Below are positions 3,577 to 48,144 of a stretch of DNA of 64,000 nt, in pieces; positions within the stretch are counted from its first letter, which is position 1, and every line of letters starts with the position of its first letter. The position numbers and the translations under genes are program-made. The stretch lies in NCBI GenBank assembly GCA_023205875.1, contig CP060773.1:248001-312000 (forward strand), read 5' to 3'. Under the pieces are notes generated by a model, which made no database searches, was not told the origin of the DNA, and saw nothing but the letters and a program-made list of their open reading frames with translations. The stretch is from Chloropicon primus (Eukaryota).

Positions 3577-4215
3577 AACGGTTCTCTCCCCTTCTCTGTA
3601 CAACACCACCAGAATGCGTTGCTCCCTCCCCCCCGGGAACGAAACGAACGAAGAGTGAGTTGCTCTCTTGGCCTTCTCTTTCTGTATAACATATAATAAA
3701 GAATGGAAATCACTCTTGTGATTTAACCTACACCACCGGAATCACTGTCGAGCAGGGAACGACAAGCACTTGCCTTTTCATCACCACCACCACCACCTGA
3801 AACTGCACAGATCATCTCCAATGGATGAGACTGGGAGACACAGAGAGAGAAAGAGAAAGCGGAGGACAATGCCTCTCTCTTCCTCACCATCGTCCGTCAC
3901 CATCATCCGTCATCACCCTCACCATCCATCGCCATCGCCATCATCTTCTCCCTGTCAAAGATTTTGTGAACCCCAAAAAATCTTGGAAAGCAGAGGATGG
4001 TGTGGCACTGGTGAGGGTTGTGCCAGTACTGGACGAAAGCAGAGACGTGTGAAGAGGAAGACGGCGATACGGAGCGATTCTACAACTCACGATCTTTCCA
4101 CTGGTATCTCACTTGACCCAATTAACTTTGTGGTTCTTGTGCCACAAGCAAAAGTTTGGGTTGGACAAGGCAAAGTGTGTTGGTGGTGGTACCCCGGTGA
4201 CACAAGCGGAGCACC

Positions 4216-6079
4216 ATGGCGACGGCGATGGCGGGGAAGGGGGAGAAAGATGAATCTTTGGCCAAGTTCGAAGCTTTTCTTCAAGTGGCAACGGATGAGA
4301 TGCCGATGCAAGAGCTGAAAGATCAGGTCAAGCAGGGACTGACCCGAAGATATGAGAAGCCACCAGTGGAAGTGATTGAACAAGTTCTGAGGAAGAGGAT
4401 GGATGAGGATGCGGCCAGAAGGGTCTTGTTCTATCCCGATGATGAAGATGCAAGCTTGTACCCCTTGCTTCTGCAGAATCCACCGCCAGGGGCACCGGTG
4501 GACCACCACTGCATCAAGTCCCAGATCATATTCTTGGGACCGCTCTACCTGGCTCACCGAAGGCAGTGGAGCTTCAATCGGTGTTTCATCCTTGCTGGAG
4601 GCCTGAAAGCATTGGTCAACATGTTCCTTCACGACAACTTGCATCTCAGGGGCCAGGCCATTGAGGTTTTCAGAGATTACACCAGCGAGGAGACCTTCCC
4701 ATGGCACGATTATCACAAGCTTCAAGCTCAACAAGGTAATGCATTACCTGCGGCAGACAATCCAATCCAATGGGGCACAACACAAGCGACCAGCGAGACT
4801 CACTACAAGCACATCGCACCACGGTGCTCTCTCTCTCTCTCTCTCTGTGTGTGTGTCTGTGTCTGTGTCTTGCATTATCATCATCGCAGGCGGTGCGAAG
4901 ACGGAGCAGGCCAACGTCGTCCGGAGGATGTTCGAGCTGAGTGAAGCTGGGATCATCCAAAAGCTTGTTGCCAATTACGACAATGCTTTTCCTGGAGCTT
5001 CTCACCTTTGTCTCGGAGTTCTAGCGTTCTACAGCTCCTTCCTTCGAGTGAACTTCTGCAAGGACAACATCCTGCAGTTCTCTCAGAACTTGCTGGACAA
5101 GTTGCGAGCGTGGAGCACGAGGACCGATGCGTCTCAAGAGGAGCGTGATCTTGCCAAGAGGCTGCACGAGGACTTTGGTCGCTTCGATGCTGCGAAACTC
5201 CCAGAGCAAGCCAAGGCATCGTCCAGGCCTGGCCAAGAGGAGGAGGACTTCATGCTGTATGAAGTGAAGGAAGGCTTCGACAGGACGAGCGTGAATCATG
5301 TGGGCGAGGCCGGGGGCCAGCAAGAGCAATGGAAGGCCAAGGGGAATGCCGCCTACAAGGCCAAGGATTACAACCTAGCGGTGGACTGTTACAGCAAAGC
5401 TTTGGATGTTCCCGTCACCGAAGAGCAGTTACTGACGGAGGGGCCGAGGAGAGCCGTTTTGCACAGCAATAGGGCAGCCGCGTACCTGGCCAGGTCCAAG
5501 GTGGAGACCGGGGCGACGACCACGGCGGTGGACGACGATGCCGGGCAACTGGCTGGATGTGACTTGGTCGGCTTGAGCATCGAGGAGAGGAAGAAGATGA
5601 ACTGCAAGGCGGCTCTGTTGGACTGCGACCAGGCCTTGGACCTTCAGAGCGGCAACGTGAAGGCGAGGTACAGGAAGGCTCAGGCCTTGAAAGGCTTGGG
5701 AAGGATGCGGGAGGCCCTCGATGCGGCGAGGTCTGCTCTGAACGTGGCGCCCAAGGCTCTGGAGAGGGAGATCAGGGCCTTCCTCGAGTCGGTGTCTGGA
5801 ACCAAGTCCGCGAGCGAGGCGGCGAGCGAGGTGGCGAGCGAGGTGGCGAGCAAGGCGTCTCTCTCTGAGACGAAGACGGAAGCCGCTTCATGGGAGCAAG
5901 GTGGCCTCCTGGACTCCATCGTGATGGGGGGAAGCGAGGGAGCGACCCCAAGGTGGCCCTCAAACATCGATGATGCGGCCGTCGGTGACCAGTCCAAGGC
6001 CAAGAAGCCTCTGATCCAAGTCATCAGCGAAGTCAACTACGACGACGACAGCAGCAGCAACAACAACAACAACAGCTGA
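4216..6079 (+). CDS. TPR-repeat protein (co-chaperone-like); exons 4216-4735, 4890-6079
   Basis: Two overlapping ORFs are joined in phase by a GTAAT..CGCAG intron. TPR motifs: WKAKGNAAYKAKDYNLAVDCYSKAL, LHSNRAAAYL, KARYRKAQAL. Confidence 0.85.
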
Positions 6080-30328: not shown

Positions 30329-33300
30329 ATGGTGCTTCCCTACAAGACTTGGGAATGGCTGGCCCCCACCGTGCTCCTGACGGCGTGGTTCATCGTCCCC
30401 GTGGTGACCGTGGAACTCTTCTTGAGCGGGATCCACAACGAGGTGAAGGACAACCTGCTGAAGAGCAAGACGACCATGAAGAGGCTGAAAAGCAACGTGA
30501 GGCTGGCCAGGGAGCTCAACGAGAGCGACGACGAGGACCTCGACTTTGACATCCAGGAGGAGGAGAGGGACGATGAGCTCGAGTACGGGCTGCAGACAAC
30601 GAGCGGAGAGGGGGAGACGATCGAGGTGGACGTGGAGACCCCGCTGGAAGGCAGGCGAAAGGCCAACGGGGCGAGCAGGTCGAAGAAGGGCGGTTCAACG
30701 AAAATCGTCATGGTGGAGAAGGAGAAGGTTCACTTCCCGATGGACCCCAGGCTGAACCCCCAAGAGCATCTGTTCATGAGGGGGCTGACAGACTTGATCA
30801 TTTCCAGGAGGGTCGCGGGTCAGAACAAGCTGAGGCAGAACGCGCCGCCGATGCCCGCGAGGCCGGGCTCCTCCAAAGAAGGCCGGGGTGCTGGCCACCA
30901 CCCTGAAAACAGCGCGAAAGGCACCCTGTTCGTCACGTACATGAGGACGAAGAAAATCCTCGAAGGACTGATATTCCTTTACGAGGCCTTCAACCTCTGG
31001 TCTTGCCTCTTCGTGAGCAGCGTGGAGTGGCCAAAGCTCGCGCCGACGGAAGCTTTCGCTTACGGCAGCTTCAAGTCGTTGCACCTGTACAAAGGGATGT
31101 ACAACGGCGGGGCCAGCGGAGAGAGGATTGTATTTTATTTGATTCTTGTCCTCTTCTTCATAGCGGCTTGCTGCATGCTGGTCAAGGACGCCACGGTGGG
31201 TCCCAAGTTGATGCAGAAGCACAACATCGCCCTGAGGAACCGGCTGGTGACCTCGGCAAACTGGAACGAGTTCTTCTTCGGGAGAGCGCCGATCAAGAGT
31301 CCTAGCTCGAACCCGAAGAGCAACAGAATTACGGTGGTCCACGGGGCCAAGCTGCAAACCAAGGGAATGGACATGCTCGAATTCAGGGAGATTAGGTTTC
31401 ACTTGGCCATCTTCATGCAGTACCTCTTCTTCGAGTTCCTGTTCATGCCCGGCCTCAGCGTGGCCTTGGTAGTCCTGAACTGCCAGCCCGCGAGGGAGGA
31501 CGCCCTGGATCCAGACAGCCGCAGGGTCTACTTGTTCACCCCGAGCTCGCTGTCCCCGAGGTCTCAGGGCAACCAGGAGTATTATTATTGCTGGGAGGGC
31601 GGGCATGGCGTGGACAGCGTCGTGGGAGTCTTTATGGCGGTCTTGATCTATACCTGCGCGATCTACCACAAGAGGCAGAAGATGAGGAAGGCGTCCACTG
31701 TGGTCTACAACCTCATCTTTGAAATCTTCTACGCGATGGTGAAGGCCCTGCTCACGGTCGTGGCGGTCTGCTACTCTAACGCCCAGAACGGAAGCATACT
31801 GCTGTGGGGAGCCCTCGCCTGCTTCGTCGTCCTTGAGGTCGTGAACCACCTGATGCAGCCGTGCAAGGGCTACGGAACGATGGTGAACTCTTGCAGGGCG
31901 AGCACGTTCGCGATCGGGACCGTTACAAGCGTTTTGGCCATCCTCGTCACAAAATATTTCGAGTCCGATGCGACGAAGAACATCTCCGCTGCGATTTGGA
32001 TTGCCATGCTCTTCCCCGTGAGCGGCTTCGCGTACGAGTACAACATGCTGTCCGCCTCGCTGGCCAAGGGGGACGTGCCAGAGGACAAAACGATCGCGGA
32101 CCTGCTGCAGTTTCAGGAGAGGGGGGGGAGGAAGAGCGCCATCGTGGGCGGTTTGAACGTGCAGAGAATTGCGGGGTCTTGCGTGGCGAGGCTCTTTCAC
32201 ATCGATCCGAGGGCAAGGGACGTCGCCGTGCTCTCTCAGATCATGCTTCACCAAAGCACCAAGTCCAGGATGAGCCTGGGAAACTTGAATCACGGGCTCT
32301 CCGGTGTCTTTGGCTTCTTCTCTCCCAGCGAGGTGGGCAAGAACGTTGCGTTGACCGCGTCCACGATCGCCAGAGAGGACGGGGACTACCTCCTGTCCCA
32401 GGAATTGGATTCTCGAAGCGGCGTGAGGAGGGTGATCACGAGAGAGCAAGGAAGAATCTTGGCGGGCCACGTGCTGCAGAACAACAACATCGAGGAAGTG
32501 GCGGTGAACGCGTCTCGACTCCTGTACCCAATCCCGTTGATGGCGTTGAAGGAGGGGAAGATCGCGCATTTCGATTGGTTTGACGCATCTGCCGGGGAGA
32601 GCGAGATCCTCAAGGCGATCATCGAGTACGTTTACAGCACGTTCTCGGCCAAGGCGCTTCCGAAGACCATCTCTTTTGGAAAGTCGACGAGCAGGATTGC
32701 AAGGCTAATGAAAGACTTCGACCTCGAGGGCAAGGTGGGCTTGTTCGAGCAAGGGCCTGCTGGGCTGGTTCAAATCGATCCCGACTGCGTGACCGTGGAT
32801 GTTGCTTCCCTCATCGACCCGTTGGACTTTGACACGAGCGGAAGAGAGTTCACCAACGCCTTTGCCCTGGACCTGTCCCAGCACTTCCTGACCACGGCGG
32901 ACATGATCGTCCTGGTCCACCTGATGAAGCCGAACAACTGTCTCCAGTCCCTTGACTTGTCAGACAATTGCTTGGACGCCCAGTCCCTCCCTCTCCTGTC
33001 CAGCCTCTTCGAGGCCCAGAAGGAGAGCTCGCGACTGAAGGAGCTCCACCTCTTCGGTAACCCGCTGTCGAGGGAGCACAAGCTGGACTGGACGACTGGC
33101 AGAGAGACCATCGAGGAGAACTGGGACGAGATCTTCAAGCTTGGGCAGACTCTTGCGCAGTCCAAGTCCTTGACCTCGATCAAGATGGAAAGGTCTGAGC
33201 CCATTGACCTCTCGGAGGCTGCCAAGATGACCAGGCTGAAGCTCGGAGGGAGCGAATTCGACTTTGATTCGCGGATTGGCGACATGACTGTGGTGATGCT

Positions 33301-34315
33301 CTCCTCCCTCTTGCCCAGATTCGGCAACCTGTACGAGCTTGACCTGTCGAAGAACGACATAACGGACAAGGGAGTGCACTACCTGACAACGAGGGCCCTG
33401 AATCCTGACTTTGCTTACTCGAAGGTTTACGACCACGGCTGGGTTTGCAGGGTGACGAACCTGAACTTGGCCGAGAACAAAATAGGGGACGAGGGCCTCG
33501 TCAGCCTCTCGACCGTGCTGAAGAGGAACGAGTTCGTGACAAGACTTGATCTCAGCAGAAACAAGTTCTCTGCTCTTGGTCTGCAATTCTTGTCCAAGGG
33601 GCTGATAAGGACGAAGTACAGCAACCTCCAGGAGCTTCACTTGGAGGACAATGGCCACCTCGGTCCTGGCGCGCTTGATTCCGTGCTTGAGGTGCTCAGC
33701 AGGAAGGACCCTAACGGCTCCGATTCCTGCATGCTCAAGTCCCTCTCCCTGTCGGGCATCAAGCTCTACTGCACCGGGTGCGCCAAAGTCGGCGAGATGC
33801 TTTCCGTGAATCAGACTCTGGAAGTTCTCAGCCTTTCTGGATGCGACCTGGACCGGGAGCCACCAACGCCTCCCACTGCGGACCCCAAGCTCGCCAGATC
33901 GAATCGAAGCCGAAAGCCAAGTGGAGACTTGACGACCTCGACGAGCAAGAAAACCGGCGTCAGGGTGGACACCGGCCTCCGCGAGCTTTGCAAGTCCCTG
34001 CGAGTGAACAGCTCTCTGAGGGTTCTGGACGTGAGCAGCAACCACCTCGTGACGCAGGAGTTTGTGGCCATGGTGATCTACCTCAGCTCGAATCCAAACA
34101 CCGTTTTGGAGCATCTCAAGGTCAACGACAACAACATTGGCATCTCCATGGCGCAGTTCCGGCCACTGATTATCGAAGAAGTCCTCACAAACAAAGCTTT
34201 GCAGAGGATCGACTTGCACTCGAACCCAACCGAGAGGGGGGTCAACAAAGAGCTCTGCGTTCTGATGAGCAGGAAGAAGGACAGGTCAAGCCAAATGCTT
34301 CAGTTCGGGAACTAG
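30329..34315 (+). CDS. Multi-pass membrane protein with C-terminal RNI-like leucine-rich repeats
   Basis: 1328-aa ORF with many hydrophobic helices in the N-half, then LxxLdLsxNxI repeats (LQSLDLSDNCL, LYELDLSKNDITDKG, VTNLNLAENKIGDEG). Confidence 0.82.
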   Translation: MVLPYKTWEWLAPTVLLTAWFIVPVVTVELFLSGIHNEVKDNLLKSKTTMKRLKSNVRLARELNESDDEDLDFDIQEEERDDELEYGLQTTSGEGETIEVDVETPLEGRRKANGASRSKKGGSTKIVMVEKEKVHFPMDPRLNPQEHLFMRGLTDLIISRRVAGQNKLRQNAPPMPARPGSSKEGRGAGHHPENSAKGTLFVTYMRTKKILEGLIFLYEAFNLWSCLFVSSVEWPKLAPTEAFAYGSFKSLHLYKGMYNGGASGERIVFYLILVLFFIAACCMLVKDATVGPKLMQKHNIALRNRLVTSANWNEFFFGRAPIKSPSSNPKSNRITVVHGAKLQTKGMDMLEFREIRFHLAIFMQYLFFEFLFMPGLSVALVVLNCQPAREDALDPDSRRVYLFTPSSLSPRSQGNQEYYYCWEGGHGVDSVVGVFMAVLIYTCAIYHKRQKMRKASTVVYNLIFEIFYAMVKALLTVVAVCYSNAQNGSILLWGALACFVVLEVVNHLMQPCKGYGTMVNSCRASTFAIGTVTSVLAILVTKYFESDATKNISAAIWIAMLFPVSGFAYEYNMLSASLAKGDVPEDKTIADLLQFQERGGRKSAIVGGLNVQRIAGSCVARLFHIDPRARDVAVLSQIMLHQSTKSRMSLGNLNHGLSGVFGFFSPSEVGKNVALTASTIAREDGDYLLSQELDSRSGVRRVITREQGRILAGHVLQNNNIEEVAVNASRLLYPIPLMALKEGKIAHFDWFDASAGESEILKAIIEYVYSTFSAKALPKTISFGKSTSRIARLMKDFDLEGKVGLFEQGPAGLVQIDPDCVTVDVASLIDPLDFDTSGREFTNAFALDLSQHFLTTADMIVLVHLMKPNNCLQSLDLSDNCLDAQSLPLLSSLFEAQKESSRLKELHLFGNPLSREHKLDWTTGRETIEENWDEIFKLGQTLAQSKSLTSIKMERSEPIDLSEAAKMTRLKLGGSEFDFDSRIGDMTVVMLSSLLPRFGNLYELDLSKNDITDKGVHYLTTRALNPDFAYSKVYDHGWVCRVTNLNLAENKIGDEGLVSLSTVLKRNEFVTRLDLSRNKFSALGLQFLSKGLIRTKYSNLQELHLEDNGHLGPGALDSVLEVLSRKDPNGSDSCMLKSLSLSGIKLYCTGCAKVGEMLSVNQTLEVLSLSGCDLDREPPTPPTADPKLARSNRSRKPSGDLTTSTSKKTGVRVDTGLRELCKSLRVNSSLRVLDVSSNHLVTQEFVAMVIYLSSNPNTVLEHLKVNDNNIGISMAQFRPLIIEEVLTNKALQRIDLHSNPTERGVNKELCVLMSRKKDRSSQMLQFGN

Positions 34316-34544
34316 ACAAAAGTTGGCACCGAGGCCTGTTCTTGGATCTTGAAATTCAAACCCCTGCTACAACTTTTGTAAAACCGTTATCACTATGGTG
34401 TTCAGACATCAGATCAAAAACAGCACACAGAAAAGTCACGAAAGGACGGTAAGATAATCACAGTCAATACTGGAAGCACAAAGGCAAGCTCTCCTTTCCA
34501 CTGAAAGAGAGAAACACGGAGAGCCGGGACCGGCCACTACTTAC

Positions 34545-34702
34545 CTGTTAGTTTTCTGCAAAGGTCGTTTCACCGAGTTTGTAAGTTTCTCGGCAGGGTA
34601 ATTCGGCCCTACCACGACCATTCCACCGTACATGAACGAATACTTCCGCCCACTTAGCGCACGGCAGCCCGTACTAACAAACGTATGTGCAACCCTGAGG
34701 AG
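34545..34702 (-). ncRNA. Candidate omegaRNA scaffold / right end of the Fanzor element
   Basis: Directly 3' of the Fanzor stop. Nested stems 34563-68/34614-19, 34573-77/34589-93 and 34595-98/34607-10 form a three-way junction. Boundaries are inferred. Confidence 0.55.
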
Positions 34703-36867
34703 TTACACACTTTTTGGTTGACGCAAGTGCTTCAGGAGGACGTTGCGTGCCCCGTTCACATCCCGACCGCACTTGAAGCCACACTTCTGGCACTTGTACA
34801 CCTCTGCTCCACCCAGGTTGTCCTTGATGTGTCCGCACTTGCCACAGGTCTTGGAGGTGTACTCCTCCGTCACGATCGCCAGCTCACTGCCGTGCAAGAG
34901 CACCTTGGAAGCCAAGAACGTTCTGAACGCATAGTGCCTCAACGTCAAGAGCGTGCGAGCCGTCTTCTTCCTGATCACTCGGCGTCTCCCGTTGTTGTTC
35001 TTCTTCACCATGTCTTGGGACTTGAACTCCGGGAGGAGGATTGTGTCGAACCTCCTGCATAGATCGTTGGCTACCTTTTTGTGAAGCTCGTTCGTCAGAC
35101 CTCGAAGTTTCTCCATGCAGGCGTATTGCTGTCTCTTCAAGTCGCGGCGGTCGAGGTAAGGGAGCTTCACCTTTGGGTCTTTGCGCTCGGAAATGATCTC
35201 ATCAATCCTCCAGCAGAGGTTGAACAGCCTCGCGAAGCCTCGCTCGCCCGTGGCATACTCCCCGACGCCTTCTTGCGGCGAGTACGACGTCTGAAAGGTC
35301 CTGACTCCCGGATCCAGGGCGACAACCTTCCGCTTGTTCTCAGGCTTCAGGGGTGGCAGGCGATCCCATGGCGTCGCGATGGGAATGTGCATGTGGAACT
35401 GCCCAAGGCGATTTCTTGTGATCTTCACGGCACCCTCGATCTTGCCCCCGGGGATCTCCTCCGTCAAGTACAGGGGCCCGCCGGCCATCTTCTTCTTGAA
35501 CACCTCCAGCTTGGTCCACTTGCGTCGTTTCTTGTGCTTCGTATCATCCTTGTGCCTCGTGTTTGGCCTTTCGATCGTCTCCACGTTCTTTAACTCTCTT
35601 GCATCAATTTCAATAGTCCAAGAACTCGGTTGCTGACGTTGACGATACTTGAGAACGAAGCGGTGCCCCTTCTCCTCGCCGCGCTCCTTCATCGCTTCCT
35701 GCTTCGCGGTGTTCGAATCCCATGCCTTGATGAGACTTCGCACGGCAGCTTGTCTGATGGCACAGGGGGTATCCTTCAGCCAAGGATGCTTCTGATTTAC
35801 AAAGGCCCCGCTAACGTAGTCCCGGTCCTTGGCCACTTCGGCGCGAAATCGTCTGCCTCCAATTTGGCTCTCGAGTCTCTTCTCTCTGGCCGCGAAAAGC
35901 TCTGCCTCCTGTTTTGTCCATGGCCGTGGAGAGCATTGGATTTCTTTCAGCTCTTTCTCCAGCCCCTCAAAGACCTCAGGGCGTCGCGGTTTGGCCGTCA
36001 CAAATCTGTCCAGCAGGACGGTCCAAACCAGCGGAAAACCCTCCTTCTTGACCGCCTCCAAACACTTGTTGTATGTGAAACGCGCAGCTCCCATCCAGTT
36101 GCAAAGGCACTTCGCCTGCTCAGGGTTCAAGCGCATCCTAAGCTTCCTCGTCCGTATCACCGTTCGCTCCGGCAATAGCTTGGAGGTCTTCAGTTTCTGC
36201 CCCCTCTTCCTTTTGGCGGGCGACTGCAATGTCTCGACGGATACCACAGAATCTTCTGGAAGGTTCAAGCACGACCTCCATCCCGTCTTCGGACACTTTA
36301 CCTCTTCAAGTTCTCTCTTGATCGATGAGAACCAGGTCTTCTTCACGCTGTCGTCCGCCAAGCCACCCGGCTGCTTCCCTGCTTTCTTCCCCCTCTTGTT
36401 CTTCTTCTTCTTACCCTTCTTCTTGTTCTTCTTCTTGCCCTTCTTGCGAGGCTTCTTGCGAGGCTTGCCTGACGAGCTCGAACTCTCACCCGCAGAGGCG
36501 TCCGCCTCCGGCGGACGCCCCTTCCGCTTCCCCCCCCGCTTCTTGCGAGGCGTGCTCGAACCCTCCTCGAAAGCAGAGGCGGGGTCGTCCAGCGGCTTCC
36601 CTTCCGCTTCCCCCGCTTCTTGCGAGGCGTGCTCGAACCCTCACCCGCAGAGGCGGGGTCGTCCGCGATAGGAAGCAGGCACAACGCGTAGAGCCAGGCT
36701 AAACCCTGATTCCAGAACCGACGTAACGGCTCCGTCGTCGGAGACTCCTGCCCCGACTTCGAAGCGCCCTGAGCATGACTCTCGCCAGAGTGCGACCTCC
36801 TTGTGGAACTCGTCGAGCCACTCCCCTGCTTCTCCTTTTTCTTACGGCGCTTCCCTGATCGCGCCAT
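34703..36867 (-). CDS. Fanzor2 / IS607-type TnpB-like RNA-guided endonuclease; reading frame broken near 36600 (1-nt indel or intron 36644-36469)
   Basis: TnpB N-terminal segment RTRKLRMRLNPEQ...WMGAARFTYN, HPWLKDTP, RuvC-I VVALDPGVRTF, ILLPEF with VTEEYTSKTC, zinc ribbon CGKC..CQKC and RuvC-III RDVNGARN. The upstream ATG ORF (36867) is in another frame. Confidence 0.92.
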
Positions 36868-37080
36868 GACTGTTAGCTGCTACTGCAAGGGTTTCACTCG
36901 CTGCCCTCCTCGTAACTCCTCGTAACTATAGATTTGCCTTGTCCAGCAAGTGAGAACACGAGAAAAACGCTTAGGGGGTTGTCCTTTGGGTGTGACCAAA
37001 CTGGTATACACTGGAATCCCACCAACAGGGGAAAACCTCCAAGGGGAACCAACCGACCGCAAATATCAGGAGAAAGGACG

Positions 37081-38924
37081 ATGCGAGGAGTTGGGAAGCA
37101 GAGAGGTCGGAGGAAGGACGGAAGCGATGACTCGAGCATGGGAGGGTCTCAGTCACCGGAAGACTACCCTTCGACATCGCTCTCTCCTTCCGAATCCAAC
37201 GGTGTGCGCCACGATGAGGGAGAGGAACGAGAGGAAGAAGAGGCAGGGAGTGCATCGACATCTCCTTTGCCACATCTAAATCCAGCAACGGCTTTCGCTT
37301 CGGGCTTCCACTCCATGAGGAACGCTGGCTTGGGCATCGTATCGAAGCATGTTGCCATGAGGACGGGATCCTTGTCCCTCTTGACTCGGTTGGAGAAGTA
37401 CAAGACCCTGGAAGGTCACGGTGAGTCACAACACATGATGAAATACTTTCTTTTGTCTTCCAGCACCTCCAGCCAACACTCTTGCGCTCCCTGTGGAAGG
37501 AAAGCGTCCTGACGATTGGGTTCGATTCCGCCTCGCCACTTCTTCGGCTTCGTGTGCTCGCAGAGGGCTGCGTCAACACTGTAAAGTTCACGAGGGACGG
37601 AAACTCCCTCATCTCTGGCAGCGATGACCATCGTATCAACTTGTACAACTGGAGGACGGGTGACTGTCGAGTGACTTTGGAGACTTTGCACAGAGGGAAC
37701 ATCTTCCAAGCGGAGCAGCTTCTGCATTGTGACAACAGCATCGTGTCTTGTGGTGCAGATGGGGAGGTGCAGATGCACTCGTTGCGCGACGGCGGGAAGT
37801 GTGCGGGCGATCAGACGACGGTGCTCGGGTACCACTCTGGAAGGGTTCACAAGCTCTCGCTGAATCCCGTGGATCCTAACTCGTTCTTGAGCTGTGGGGA
37901 AGACGGGGTTGTCAACACCTACGACGTGAGAACGAACGACTCGAGGATTGCGGTCAAGTTCCTCAACAACAACCGAAGGAAGGTTCCGATTAACTCTGTG
38001 AATCACGATCCGCTGTCCCTGGGAAGAAGGTTTGCCTTGGCCGGGAGCGACAAGTACGTCAGGGTCTACGACTACAGGTACTTGAAGGAGTCGGAGCCCG
38101 TGCAGATGGTGAGTTCACTCCTTCTTTCTTCTTCTTCTCTCTTCCTTTCTTCTGCTCTGACTGACTGACGACGACCGTTGTGGGACACACAGTACACCGC
38201 CAATGACGTGCAGACAGGGTGCTACATCACGTGTTTGGATTACTCGTGCCACGGAGAGCTATTGGCGACGTTCAGCGAAGACTTCATTTACTTGTTCCCG
38301 AAATTCGGTTCCGACAATAAGACGGTGCACTCGGCCAACCAAGAAGAGGCGGAAACGGCGCCCGCGGAGGTTTGCAGCGACATGCAGGTGTACAAGGGGC
38401 ATTTGAATTGCGATACTGTCAAGGGGGTCACCTTCTTTGGACCGAACGACGAGTTCGTGGCCAGCGGCTCGGATTGTGGCCACTGCTTCATTTGGGACAA
38501 GCACAACGCTGACGTTCTCCAGGCCTTCAAGGCAGACAAGGACATATTGAATTGCATCCAACCGCACCCGCACGAGTCCATGACTCTGGCCACCTCCGGG
38601 CTCGACCACAACTGCAAGATTTGGCAGCCAACAGCCTCTCACTCCACTGTCCCAGAGGACTTGGACGAGATCGTCGAGAAGAACATGAGAAGCCTTGAAG
38701 CGGGCGGCGGTTGGCAGCAGCAGGCGAACAGGATCTTGTACGCCCTGCTCAATGATGTGGACGTGATGATAGAAGATGACGAGGGGGGGAGGGTGTCCAT
38801 GTTTGATTACTACTCGAACAACGCTCGCTTCGCTCAAGGGAGTGGACCTGAAAGCAGCGACGGAGATACGGACGGAGACGTGAACAACGGCCCGGAAGCC
38901 ATGATGATGGAGGGGGCCGACTGA
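37081..38924 (+). CDS. WD40 protein, DCAF8-like; exons 37081-37420, 37564-38108, 38193-38924
   Basis: Spliced LEGHEGCVNTVKF..LISGSDD, HRGNIFQA, FLSCGEDG, YKGHLNCDTVKGVTFFGP, SGSDCGH and NCIQPHP. Confidence 0.9.
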
Positions 38925-44676: not shown

Positions 44677-47203
44677 TCACAGCCTTGGGACCCACTCGTC
44701 CATCCAGTGGAGCCTCCTCAGCACCCAGTCCTGAAGCCCTCGAACATTCTGGTCCCACGTGGGTCCCCAGTACTTTATGGGAATGTACTTGTGGTTGGTG
44801 CTGACCTGACTGATGGGCCACACCCCAAAGTTCCTGCCCTGGGAGTTGCTCAAGAGCGCTCTGTAGCTTCGGATCGAAGCCACGACGTCAGAATCCTTCC
44901 ACACCGTCCTTCGGAGGTCCTCGTACCTTTGCGAGAGCCTGCGCACGAAGGCGGGATCCTGGAGGAGCCTGTAATACCAGTGAACCATCTGAGAGTACGA
45001 TTTCTGGTTGGGACCAATGTAAGTGAAGTCCCAGGGCTCCACGTAGTACCCGTTCCAGTAGGTAGCCTGCCCGAAGGCCAAGTTGTAGTCCCAGGCAGGG
45101 CCCGCAACCAGCTTGGAGTCCTTGTCCTTGTGCAGGTACACGGAGGAAATGTAACCGTCAAGGTTTTTGCTCACTTCAGTGTGCAAAAAATAGTCGATCC
45201 AAGAATCGACGTCAATGTACTTGGAGTACCCCTCCGGGCCGGCAAAGCCTGGGCCCCACAAGGCTTGTTGGAAGTCCGACAAGTAGTTGGAAATGAAGCG
45301 ATGCTGGGGTCCAGTGGGGATCTTGGGATAAACGTAAGACACCCTGGCTGGACCTTCGTCCAGAACCTTTTGCTTCTGGGGCTCACCGGTGTTGAGCATG
45401 CTGTCGTGAGAATTGCTGGAAAGCACCAGGAGGTAGCCGCCAGAGACGTCGGTCCGGTTCAAAGGATCCATCTTGCTAACGGCCACCCTGTTTGAGCCCC
45501 TTTTGATCTTTTCCTTCAGAAGATAGATTCCCTTGTAATGGTCGCCGTAGTCCACGTGGCTCTTGCCGTCCCCCTCCATCACGAACAATTCGATGAACTG
45601 CATTGCGGGGGCCCACCTCCCCAGGCCGCGAAACATGTCGAACGCCAACGCGTCTCTCATGAGAGACCTGTCCACGTACGGGGCACCGAGAACCCAGTCC
45701 TCCTCGGGGGGGAGCCCCAAGGGGGCAAGCTCGATGCCTTTTGCCAAGCAAGGAGAGGCAATACACACAAACACGCCAAACAAATCAAGAGAGTCAGGGG
45801 AAATGGTTCGCTTGGCACGCGCGGCTTTCCTGCGCGCAAAAGGCCACGGATTGGGGCTACTCACCGTTATGGTTCTGGTCCCAGAACTCAAAGCTGTACT
45901 GCTTCTTCGGATACCTCTGGCTGGACCGGCCTCGAAGCTCAATGCCGGCCTTGCCACTGTAGGCCGCTTCATCCCTCAGGGAGCAAATCAGGTTGTCCCT
46001 GTTTTTGACCGCGCTGGACACGACGTGATCGTCTGAAGAATCCCCAAACTCCGAGCACCCGCTGAGCCAAAGGTGGCTCGGCATCTTAGGGTCGTTCGGA
46101 ATTCCCCTCGCGGTCTTCACGATCGCCAGGGGGAGGTTGCTCTTGAAAGAGAACTCGCGGGTGCCCGGGGCGTCGCTCAGGAAAGGATTCCCGCCCTCCT
46201 CATGCCAGTGGGGTCCAAGGGGGCCGCGCGTGAGCCGTCCCTCGTTCGCGCCGCCGGGGGTCCCTTCTCTGAGGTAACTCAGCATCTGGACACCACCGCT
46301 CGCTCTGCTGCTGACTTCGAGCTTGGCCCCATCCAGAGGCCTTCCCAGGGTGAATCCCAACTCGTCCTCGTGCGGCGTCTCCCACCCGACCTTGTCCAGT
46401 CCAGCAGCAGCAGTCGCCCCGCCCTCCGGAGCTCCCTTCACGCGAAGCCTCATCTGCCCAGCGCGGTGCAAGTTGTGGAGAAGCTTGCACCCCGACAGCT
46501 CGCGGTCTGCGTTGGTCCCTGCCTCCTTCACGTAGTGCCTGAGCGTTGGCGTGCACCGGCCGCACGTCTTGGAGCAGTAGCCTCCCTCGACCATCCAACT
46601 CTCCTGACACTTGTTCCACTCCTTCTGCTTGCTGCAACTGATTGCACTGCTGCCCTTTGGGCGAACGTCCCTGCAAGCTCCTTGGCTCGCCTCGGGCCCC
46701 CGCGCACTGTCGTCGTTGAGGCGGTAGACGCGGTTGCGAAGCGACAGGAAGAGCTCGGGCTTCTTCGTCTCCCCGGCGACCACCAAGTACTGCTTGGGTT
46801 TCAGAACCCCGAGACTCTCGCAGCCTTCTTCGCCCTCGCCGATCAAGACCCTCCAGACCGCCCCGGCATCCGAGTCGTCCCTCAGCTCCACCACGAGGCC
46901 GCTCAAGTCAACTGCGCCGTCCCCGCGGTTCACCAGCTCGACCCAGTCCGGTCCGCCCGCTCGGTCGCTGTGCTGCACCTCGTTGATTTCCACGCCCCCG
47001 AACTGTCGCGGGTCCTCCGGGCTTGGAGGGGCAGACGACGTTGACTCTGGTTTCGTAACGTTCGTCAAGAAGGCGAGCAAATTCACGGATATGGCGTCCA
47101 CCGCGGCGTCCTCCGCACTCACCAGAGCTCCAAGCAGGAGCAGAAGGACCAAGAAGCACAGGCCGGGGACCGCCACGACGCGAAGACCTCGCGGTGTCGC
47201 CAT
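44677..47203 (-). CDS. Secreted CotH-family kinase with lamin-tail-like and small Cys-rich modules; exons 47203-45865, 45737-44677
   Basis: Signal peptide, INEV..DWVELVN, CSKQKEWNKC..W...GYCSKTCGRC, GIELRGRSSQRYPKKQY, DRSLMRD, YKGIYLLKEKI, NLDGY and GPAWDYNLAFG. Confidence 0.88.
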
Positions 47204-48144
47204 GCTGACACTCACGTCCAGGCAAGTCAACCGCCAAGAAGTAAAGCAAGCACGCAAACGACGACCGAGAAAGCAAGCGAACGTGATCAAGCGTCCGAAA
47301 AGCGGGAAGAAACCTCGAAGATGAGGAAACCGAACGATCAAAGACTCATTAAGTCCACATTGTCGACCCCGTCCGTCCTTAATGTCGCCCGCAAAGTCGC
47401 GATCTGCTTCGCCCTTCGCCTTCGCTCGTCTCGCATTTCGAGCGTTTCGCTCCTCCTCCTCTTCGTTCGCAAAAATAAAAATGTATCGCTAAATTTGCGT
47501 TTACTTGGAGCAGCGTCTCGTCATCCCATGGACAGGATTTTTGGAACTCCAGGGGGTGGCCCAAGATGGTGACAGAAGGCTTGGTGAGGTCGCCCCCCAG
47601 GGAGGAAGCGAGGTTGATGTCATCACAATAGTCATCTGCATCGACTTGTTTGTTCATCAAGACCTTTCCAGAGATACCTTCGACTCCAGGAACGCTTGAG
47701 ATTCAAGGTCATCGGGTCTCCGACGAGCAGATTGACTCTTCTATTCGAGCTCACAGAAGGCTTGGTGAGGGAGGAGGGGGTAGGTTGGCTGTCATCGCAG
47801 GGGTCTTTCGCATCCGGAAGCGTTCTGCGGACCTTGTTCCGAGTATACGTCCCGCTCACCGTCGAAAGCGACGCGAGGGTTGGGAGGAAGGGACGACCAA
47901 CTGGGTACTTGCTCCTGGTGGTGGAGGTGACAGCAACCGAGGAGCCTGCAAGCTGTGCCGACGGGAACCGCAGCCTCCTAGCACGTCGAGGGCGATTTCA
48001 GTGTGAGTCTCCCTTCCCTTCGATTGGCGCAGAGCCCACAGAATTCCTCGCCTTTCTGCTCAGAGCAGCTCCCTTGCTTGGACCAAGGTCACTGGGCTTG
48101 TGGGGCAGAAAGCCCGGCCACCCATTGTTTAGGCTTGGGTTGCT

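Follow-up and report, generated by a model that had tools for sequence, protein, structure and literature searches.

The window, by which we mean the whole 64,000-nucleotide stretch of the Chloropicon primus genome analysed here, carries one copy of a multi-copy, recently mobile, transposase-less element that belongs to a Fanzor2 family whose D-E-D catalytic triad is intact. The element is transcribed, this copy is frameshifted in the assembly, and RNA contigs branch at position 34545; of all this we are highly confident. Our preferred reading, to which we give a probability of roughly 45%, is that the copy is a frameshifted, end-eroded Fanzor2* element whose omegaRNA scaffold ends internally, at a splice donor that is likely used, and that intact siblings obtain their guide by splicing and not by read-through.

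All sequencing runs used here (X1 and following) consist of assembled contigs. X1 is DNA; X4 to X7 were taken as RNA by guess, the WD40 intron being spliced in X5, X6 and X7 but not in X4, and X3 behaves as RNA. Splicing was read from the contigs. The features of the locus are as follows.

30329..34315, plus strand: flanking host gene for a membrane/LRR protein, outside the element
34394..37042, minus strand: non-autonomous transposon copy of about 2.65 kb, delimited by unique contig ends and depth
34394..34544, minus strand: right arm, which reaches from scaffold end to element end, is a fixed part of the mobile unit and begins the putative intron
34539..34547, minus strand: consensus 5' splice site CAG/GTAAGT, on the scaffold/guide boundary
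34545..34702, minus strand: predicted omegaRNA scaffold; the 8-nt loop (34680-34673) of a hairpin at 34683-34670 forms a pseudoknot with 34552-34545
34703..36640, minus strand: Fanzor2 nuclease frame, open over 645 aa; the earliest in-frame ATG, at 36136, leaves 477 aa
36384..36466, minus strand: Lys/Arg-rich low-complexity insert, likely a nuclear localisation signal, 45% K+R over 67 residues, absent from relatives
36597..36603, minus strand: 1-bp frameshift, in a short G run within a 77/78-bp tandem repeat (36476-36664)
36597..36867, minus strand: 5' portion of the Fanzor gene, with MARSG...FWNQ..., frameshifted against the remainder in the assembly
36868..37042, minus strand: left arm or 5' region, without the terminal TG present in two other copies, as judged from a loose end at 37042 in X7 and from the Chr17 insertion row
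37081..38924, plus strand: flanking host WD40 gene with introns, outside the element

The preliminary description had placed the nuclease in an algal nuclear chromosome. This eukaryotic, algal nuclear location was confirmed, because the element is flanked by LRR and WD40 genes, the WD40 gene has a spliced GT-AG intron, and unique DNA contigs span both element junctions. In X4 to X7 no RNA contigs covered the LRR gene, which proves nothing.

We then compared the window protein with its homologues. The best four of 33 are C. primus 'putative IS605 transposases' with 90-98% identity, and the identity with P0003 is 97% across 99% of the query. In the cluster of 46 members that P0003 heads, the protein is intact, at 722-723 aa, in at least ten, among the 15 members listed. 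The C. primus Fanzor2* proteins of Yoon et al. 2023 (PMC10711439; bioRxiv 10.1101/2023.08.09.552727), whose Table S3 includes UPR03652.1, UPR02811.1, QDZ25014.1 and UPR04245.1, are 96-98% identical to the window protein, which is a Fanzor2 of this published family. According to the preprint text, Fanzor2* is a multi-copy, non-autonomous, TnpA-less TIR transposon with degenerate TIRs, a variable 5-nt TSD and no partner found; the window copy differs in being frameshifted and in lacking its terminal bases and TSD. In a FastTree phylogeny of 201 rows (drawn from 249 ORF-match loci and 33 proteins after removal of duplicates and of rows without both motifs, with Fanzor1 not included), the window protein fell into an 18-row clade with SH support of 100 that holds no named prokaryote. 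The clade sits inside the Fanzor2/pro-Fanzor assemblage, with IS607 pro-Fanzors and apart from 20 canonical TnpBs (SH 100), and the best prokaryotic relatives, at no more than 44% identity on the best segment, lie outside it.

The nuclease itself is marked by the following features.

35789..35995, minus strand: helical insertion of about 60 aa in the REC lobe, from alignment and a model of sibling P0003
35312..35314, minus strand: RuvC-I Asp, in ALDPG (DPG)
34865..34867, minus strand: shifted RuvC-II Glu, the first E of VTEEYTS, six residues ahead of the first Cys of the zinc ribbon
34760..34762, minus strand: RuvC-III Asp, in RDVNGARN

Together with the Pro of LLPEF and two CxxC pairs (CGKC/CQKC) forming the zinc ribbon, these are all of the motifs reported before, and each was found again. 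P0001 matches the regular expression by which Yoon et al. 2023 (PMC10711439) define the shifted Glu, namely DPG in RuvC-I and a Glu six before the zinc finger (DPG 443-445, E592 and C599, 146 residues between). Of 24 proteins examined, C. primus-named or from the window, 22 retain the triad, among them 22/22 nuclease-length members, the two exceptions being an N-terminal fragment and an unrelated SET-domain protein. The Fanzor2 gene of the element encodes a predicted RNA-guided DNA nuclease.

In profile searches of the window, the Pfam families Cas12f1-like_TNB and HTH_OrfB_IS605 scored above cut-off and NCBIfam guided_TnpB scored 89.9, below its cut-off of 100. The top PDB match was the mimivirus Fanzor2 9B0L, both by sequence (E 9.7e-20) and by fold (E 2.6e-13), so that with the family match and the tree the Fanzor2 identity put forward at the outset was borne out. 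ApmFz2 (PDB 9B0L; PMC11832414) and the loci L003-L005 have in common with the window the DPG, the shifted Glu, the zinc ribbon, an NG-ending pseudoknotted scaffold and an N-terminal extension from a frame overlapping TnpA. Compared with these, the window protein has an extra REC insertion and a K-rich repeat, and its structural-alignment identity to 9B0L is 18%. An insertion of about 65 aa between DRFVT and HPWL had been noted; it is real and measures about 60 aa against the compact relatives P0017/P0018 (69 residues in the window versus about 7 in the alignment). It is common to P0007/P0008 at similar length and to P0009-P0016 at shorter length, and it corresponds to helices 299-313 and 321-351 in the AF2 model of P0003. 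Structure prediction had been suggested as a further check; with a pLDDT of 62.5 overall and below 50 at 522-543 (RuvC-I), the P0003 model did not confirm the active-site geometry.

The preliminary description had given the nuclease the span 34703..36867, which is not a single ORF: it is broken by the 1-bp frameshift near 36598, and an intact full-length ORF is absent from the window locus in the assembly. From the ATG at 36867 a frame of 174 aa runs to a stop at 36343. Over its first 90 residues it corresponds to the N-terminal part of intact siblings; the translation of 36597..36867 is identical to intact P0003 at 84 of 89 aligned residues. This frame and the nuclease frame differ by one base near 36598, where an extra base relative to the window was seen in contigs of X1, X3, X4, X7 and X9, and the X6 contig skips one 77-nt repeat unit, in frame; such contigs pool many copies, so that real mutation and assembly error are inseparable in them. 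We rejected an intron as the cause of the frameshift: donors lie at 36644 and 36489, but there is no branch point, and the contigs show a single extra base and no joint.

As its start codon is out of the nuclease frame and its termini are eroded, the window copy is probably dead as assembled. It would yield only a 174-aa frameshifted product or one of 477 aa, and could still supply RNA. Missing from the 477-aa product are the stretch resembling an NLS, the N-terminal extension and the first WED strand. By a correspondence that we infer, they match parts of ApmFz2 that complete RuvC and hold the DNA (structure report of Schargel et al., PMC11832414). The NLS role of the Lys/Arg-rich insert is likely by analogy with the main text of Jiang 2023. 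The earlier description of the nuclease as possibly active holds for the family, which has intact, transcribed siblings, but not to the window copy as assembled.

Copy number and mobility were examined in X1. Unique flank contigs end at 34423 and start at 37013, and with a 30-nt overlap into the repeat this gives a repeat of 34394-37042. Depth was 4078-4904 on long element contigs versus 127-161 in the flanks, a ratio of about 25-39 fold, so that the element is present in about 30 copies (about 25-39 by DNA depth). In the unique flanks (37052; 33900-34423), X1 and the window differ by indels of 4 nt and about 5 nt, which are strain, allele or assembly differences. The copies are 95-99% alike, several siblings have deletions or fusions, and the gene tables of Lemieux et al. 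2019 give RNA-seq depth for 25 genes of the element. Furthermore, three heterozygous full-length insertions in the indel table of that study (2707, 2664 and 2664 bp) are this element, indicating that it has been mobile recently and that empty alleles exist.

TGTT...AACA was read at five ends of other copies. In the window copy we found no TIR and TSD pair (the 5-nt TSD being taken from the text of Yoon et al.), and terminal bases are missing at both ends; the window copy is therefore likely immobile. A long TIR is likewise absent from the window element. The TGT termini and, in TDD-4/5, the 5-bp TSD of the Ginger2/Tdd transposons described by Bao et al. 2010 (PMC2836005) resemble the ends of the other copies and are a lead only; Ginger2 in that account has TIRs of 50-180 bp and an integrase-like transposase, whereas the C. 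primus element has a TIR of a few bases and no partner was found for it. A CACTA/Transib terminus at 34391 was also considered and rejected, since the unique contig ends at 34423, which makes the CAC flank, and other copies read TTGTT there.

No transposase gene was found in the window, in agreement with the earlier remark that none is adjacent, and mobilisation in trans, one of the two fates proposed for the nuclease, is supported by the non-autonomous element without its own transposase in Yoon et al. 2023. The other fate, domestication at a single locus, and the possibility of a bacterial TnpB on contaminant sequence might both seem to fit the lack of a nearby transposase and the intergenic position. 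Both are excluded. Domestication is contradicted by the 25-39 copies, the intact siblings, the heterozygous insertions and the frameshift, and contamination is ruled out by the contiguity with intron-bearing algal genes and by the position in the tree.

Next, we looked for the omegaRNA. The same long-range stem ranked first after the stop codon in all five sequences compared (the window and L001-L004). The motif consists of a hairpin of 3-4 bp with an 8-nt loop, six bases of which pair with a downstream hexamer that is followed by NG. It occurs once per sequence, and the four different hexamer pairs represent compensatory changes. In a shuffle control, 31-115 of 1000 shuffles per sequence gave any match, figures that are not independent because the motif was defined after these related sequences had been seen. 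Folding of the window scaffold gave a z of only -1.78, an Rfam search of it gave no match beyond one chance match, and a sequence-only model built from L001-L004 missed it; the window scaffold is longer, at 158 nt versus 82-115 in relatives, and MAFFT misaligned it. An omegaRNA in the right arm (34544-34391) was rejected, as its z of -0.69 was no better than shuffles and no relative supports it.

In TnpB and Fanzor2 scaffolds the pseudoknot closes directly before the guide, and IS607 scaffolds end at its 3' strand (text and supplement of Yoon, PMC10711439; structures of Schargel, PMC11832414; Zedaveinyte, PMC10690162). Closure of the pseudoknot at the position equivalent to 34545 is followed by unrelated flank in L001-L004, but by 150 bp of element in the window, where the repeat runs on to 34394; the element does not end at the scaffold end as an IS607EU element does. 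The text of Yoon et al. (PMC10711439) presents TIR and TSD as apparent parts of the Fanzor2* scaffold, whereas in the window they do not form its 3' end and the pseudoknot closes about 150 bp inside, at the donor. Judging from covariation, it is very likely that the scaffold ends at 34545 and that this is the old IS607 right end, stranded when a TIR transposon captured an IS607-type cassette that had lost TnpA. In the closest loci with DNA, TnpA is intact and overlaps the Fanzor N-terminus in L003-L005, is broken by a stop in L001 and is truncated in L002, and the window element scores no more than 0.8 bits against a profile of 146 TnpA ORFs; this decay series, ending in the vestige of the window, shows the apparent path of ancestry. 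In contrast to IS607-type Fanzor2, the window element thus has no serine recombinase, and its IS607 right end is no longer the element end. For tests of C. primus Fanzor2*, a scaffold run to the transposon end would have the wrong boundary, the covariation placing it at 34545.

This arrangement bears on the guide. With the scaffold ending about 150 bp short of the element's edge, the insertion flank cannot supply the guide in the usual way, and read-through yields one internal sequence for every copy. The splice donor sits exactly on this boundary, and its 9-mer, CAGGTAAGT, has its only occurrence on both strands of the first 51 kb there. RNA contigs stop at 34545 (X5, X6, X7) or 34544 (X4), that is in 4/4 runs, and RNA contig depths beyond versus before the boundary were 105 versus 1888, 34 versus 282, 170 versus 1280, and 0 versus 28. 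Among the loose ends listed, three different continuations past the boundary were found, in X4, in X7 and, at 34542, in X3. None of the three lies in the window or matches the four right flanks read, and no acceptor was seen. DNA contigs of X8 and X9 run through 34545. These data make spliceosomal splicing to acceptors beyond the element the probable explanation of the branch.

Contigs would also end here if some genomic copies were IS607-type insertions that stop at 34545 and dominate the transcripts, with the donor-like motif a chance leftover. The position is, after all, the ancestral right end at which L001-L004 pass into flank, and a minority of such copies would be hidden in low-depth metagenome contigs, and the ends of X1 were read among those listed. 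However, TnpA is absent from the element and no 'resolvase' row appears in the species-specific gene lists, X1 covers the right arm (3198 at 34489) at a depth close to the body's (about 4100-4900), and the right arm with its donor is present in 2/2 heterozygous insertions read from the right end in the indel table. In addition, the continuations have no common first base, and one of them has T in first place, at odds with a fixed IS607 crossover base. We consider this explanation rather unlikely.

We do not claim that the right arm is an exact intron. No contig joins 34545 to 34392, and branch points are poor, with no CTGAC or CTAAC near the right end. In 4/4 copies read there is an AG no more than 3 nt from the right end, and unspliced read-through beyond the right end exists (X3, X5). 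The gene models P0050, P0004 and P0061 have a Fanzor C-terminus fused at LLKHL to downstream host sequence (a SET domain or another host segment) and may be prediction artefacts or reflect a second donor.

According to the reading that we prefer, an IS607-type cassette would have lost TnpA and been captured by a TIR transposon, leaving the old right end inside. Splicing from the donor at 34545 would then swap the fixed internal sequence for host sequence as guide, and an intact Fanzor would cut near vacated insertion sites, where repair from the sister or homologue would restore the element, as TnpB does; the unspliced form would carry the fixed internal sequence. A cut-and-paste element gains only if the guide points at vacated sites, as is known for TnpB (review PMC13565253), and guides set by splicing are favoured because a fixed internal guide cannot mark such sites while a flank-spliced guide could. 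Even if splicing is granted, our confidence in this role of the joined exon is low, since filled and empty alleles would share any acceptor that lies in the host flank. In one characterised IS607 TnpB, the scaffold's final two bases equal the final two of the TAM (text of Zedaveinyte, PMC10690162); the window scaffold ends in AG, the acceptor dinucleotide, and those of its nearest relatives end in GG. That the spliceosome programs Fanzor2 in full, by splicing out the right arm and joining the scaffold to host exons, with at least one guide per copy and targets that would all follow an AG acceptor, which might also act as the TAM, seems to us unlikely.

A different use of the boundary would leave the guide fixed: the unspliced RNA would be the functional omegaRNA, with the constant 20 nt after 34545 aimed at siblings or outside the window, and splicing would only build the mRNA 3' end and remove the guide, a spliceosomal counterpart of the IStron conflict. 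Unspliced RNA contigs do exist, and every copy seen, a deletion derivative among them, retains the first 8-12 nt that follow the donor, although this stretch also simply matches the donor consensus and bases 34519-34536 vary among copies. There is no second target within the window, and such a guide would fail at vacated sites. IStrons, as described by Zedaveinyte et al. (PMC10690162), are IS607-derived elements that likewise have a splice site on the omegaRNA scaffold/guide boundary; their 3' site, part of a group I intron that splices itself, severs the scaffold from the guide, which lends precedent to a fixed guide, whereas the spliceosomal 5' site found here would keep the scaffold as an exon and attach new sequence to it. 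Splicing as guide programming or as an off switch would be the spliceosomal mirror image of IStrons. We think a fixed guide somewhat unlikely.

Finally, the Fanzor cassette may be a mere passenger, cargo of a young TIR element whose guide system died once the scaffold left the flank, with splicing an ordinary 3'-UTR process. With copies so alike, intact motifs may only reflect youth, and several siblings are deleted or fused and the window copy is frameshifted. But the pseudoknot and hairpin were kept with compensatory changes while the scaffold nearly doubled in length, and every nuclease-length member examined has kept its triad, which makes this explanation decidedly unlikely.

Capture of an IS607 Fanzor2 by a TIR transposon is a proposed step towards Fanzor1, and it raises the problem of keeping guide and insertion flank linked afterwards; splicing from a donor on the stranded right end offers a testable answer. 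The Fanzor2* family is already published, and the internal scaffold end with its splice donor is apparently undescribed: it was not found in literature listings and abstracts, in the preprint text of Yoon et al. (figures apart), which contains neither 'intron' nor 'splic', or in the main text of Jiang 2023, which contains no 'Chloropicon'.

Several derivatives of the element were seen. One X7 contig joins 34457 to 36928 inside another transcript and represents a MITE-like form with only the two arms; we rejected it as an empty site, since both arms are kept, and regard it as an internal-deletion derivative. A second internal-deletion derivative, with 36271 joined to about 34552 (X5, X6, X7; X3, X1) and marker substitutions at 36313, 36315 and 36338, has about one copy in DNA (149 at 36338 in X1), yet in X5 to X7 its contigs are deeper than those of the main form. 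It would encode only the K-rich N-terminus, and in X5 to X7 it retains GG/GTAAGT unspliced, which counts against the splicing reading. A subfamily about 10% divergent at 34663-34834 (17 differences in 172 nt) has a different inner omegaRNA segment and rejoins at 34572. Searches of viral contigs gave no match to the element ends and two chance matches to the scaffold end. The insertion calls Chr3:123680 and Chr6:369520 in Supplementary Data 8 of Lemieux 2019 have about 24 copy-specific bases before the right end, more than a 5-nt TSD would give, which may reflect alignment slippage or a longer duplication.

Elsewhere in the window, a giant ORF runs on the minus strand from 51171 to beyond 64000. 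It is built from about 100 copies of a 40-aa Thr/Gly-rich unit (120-bp period, GC about 50%) and has a Ser/Cys-rich C-terminus and frame breaks near 60.8 and 61.8 kb; its Pfam matches look spurious. Adjacent ORFs with CotH-kinase and lamin-tail domains lie at 44677-47488 (minus strand), bacterial-looking domains on an algal chromosome.
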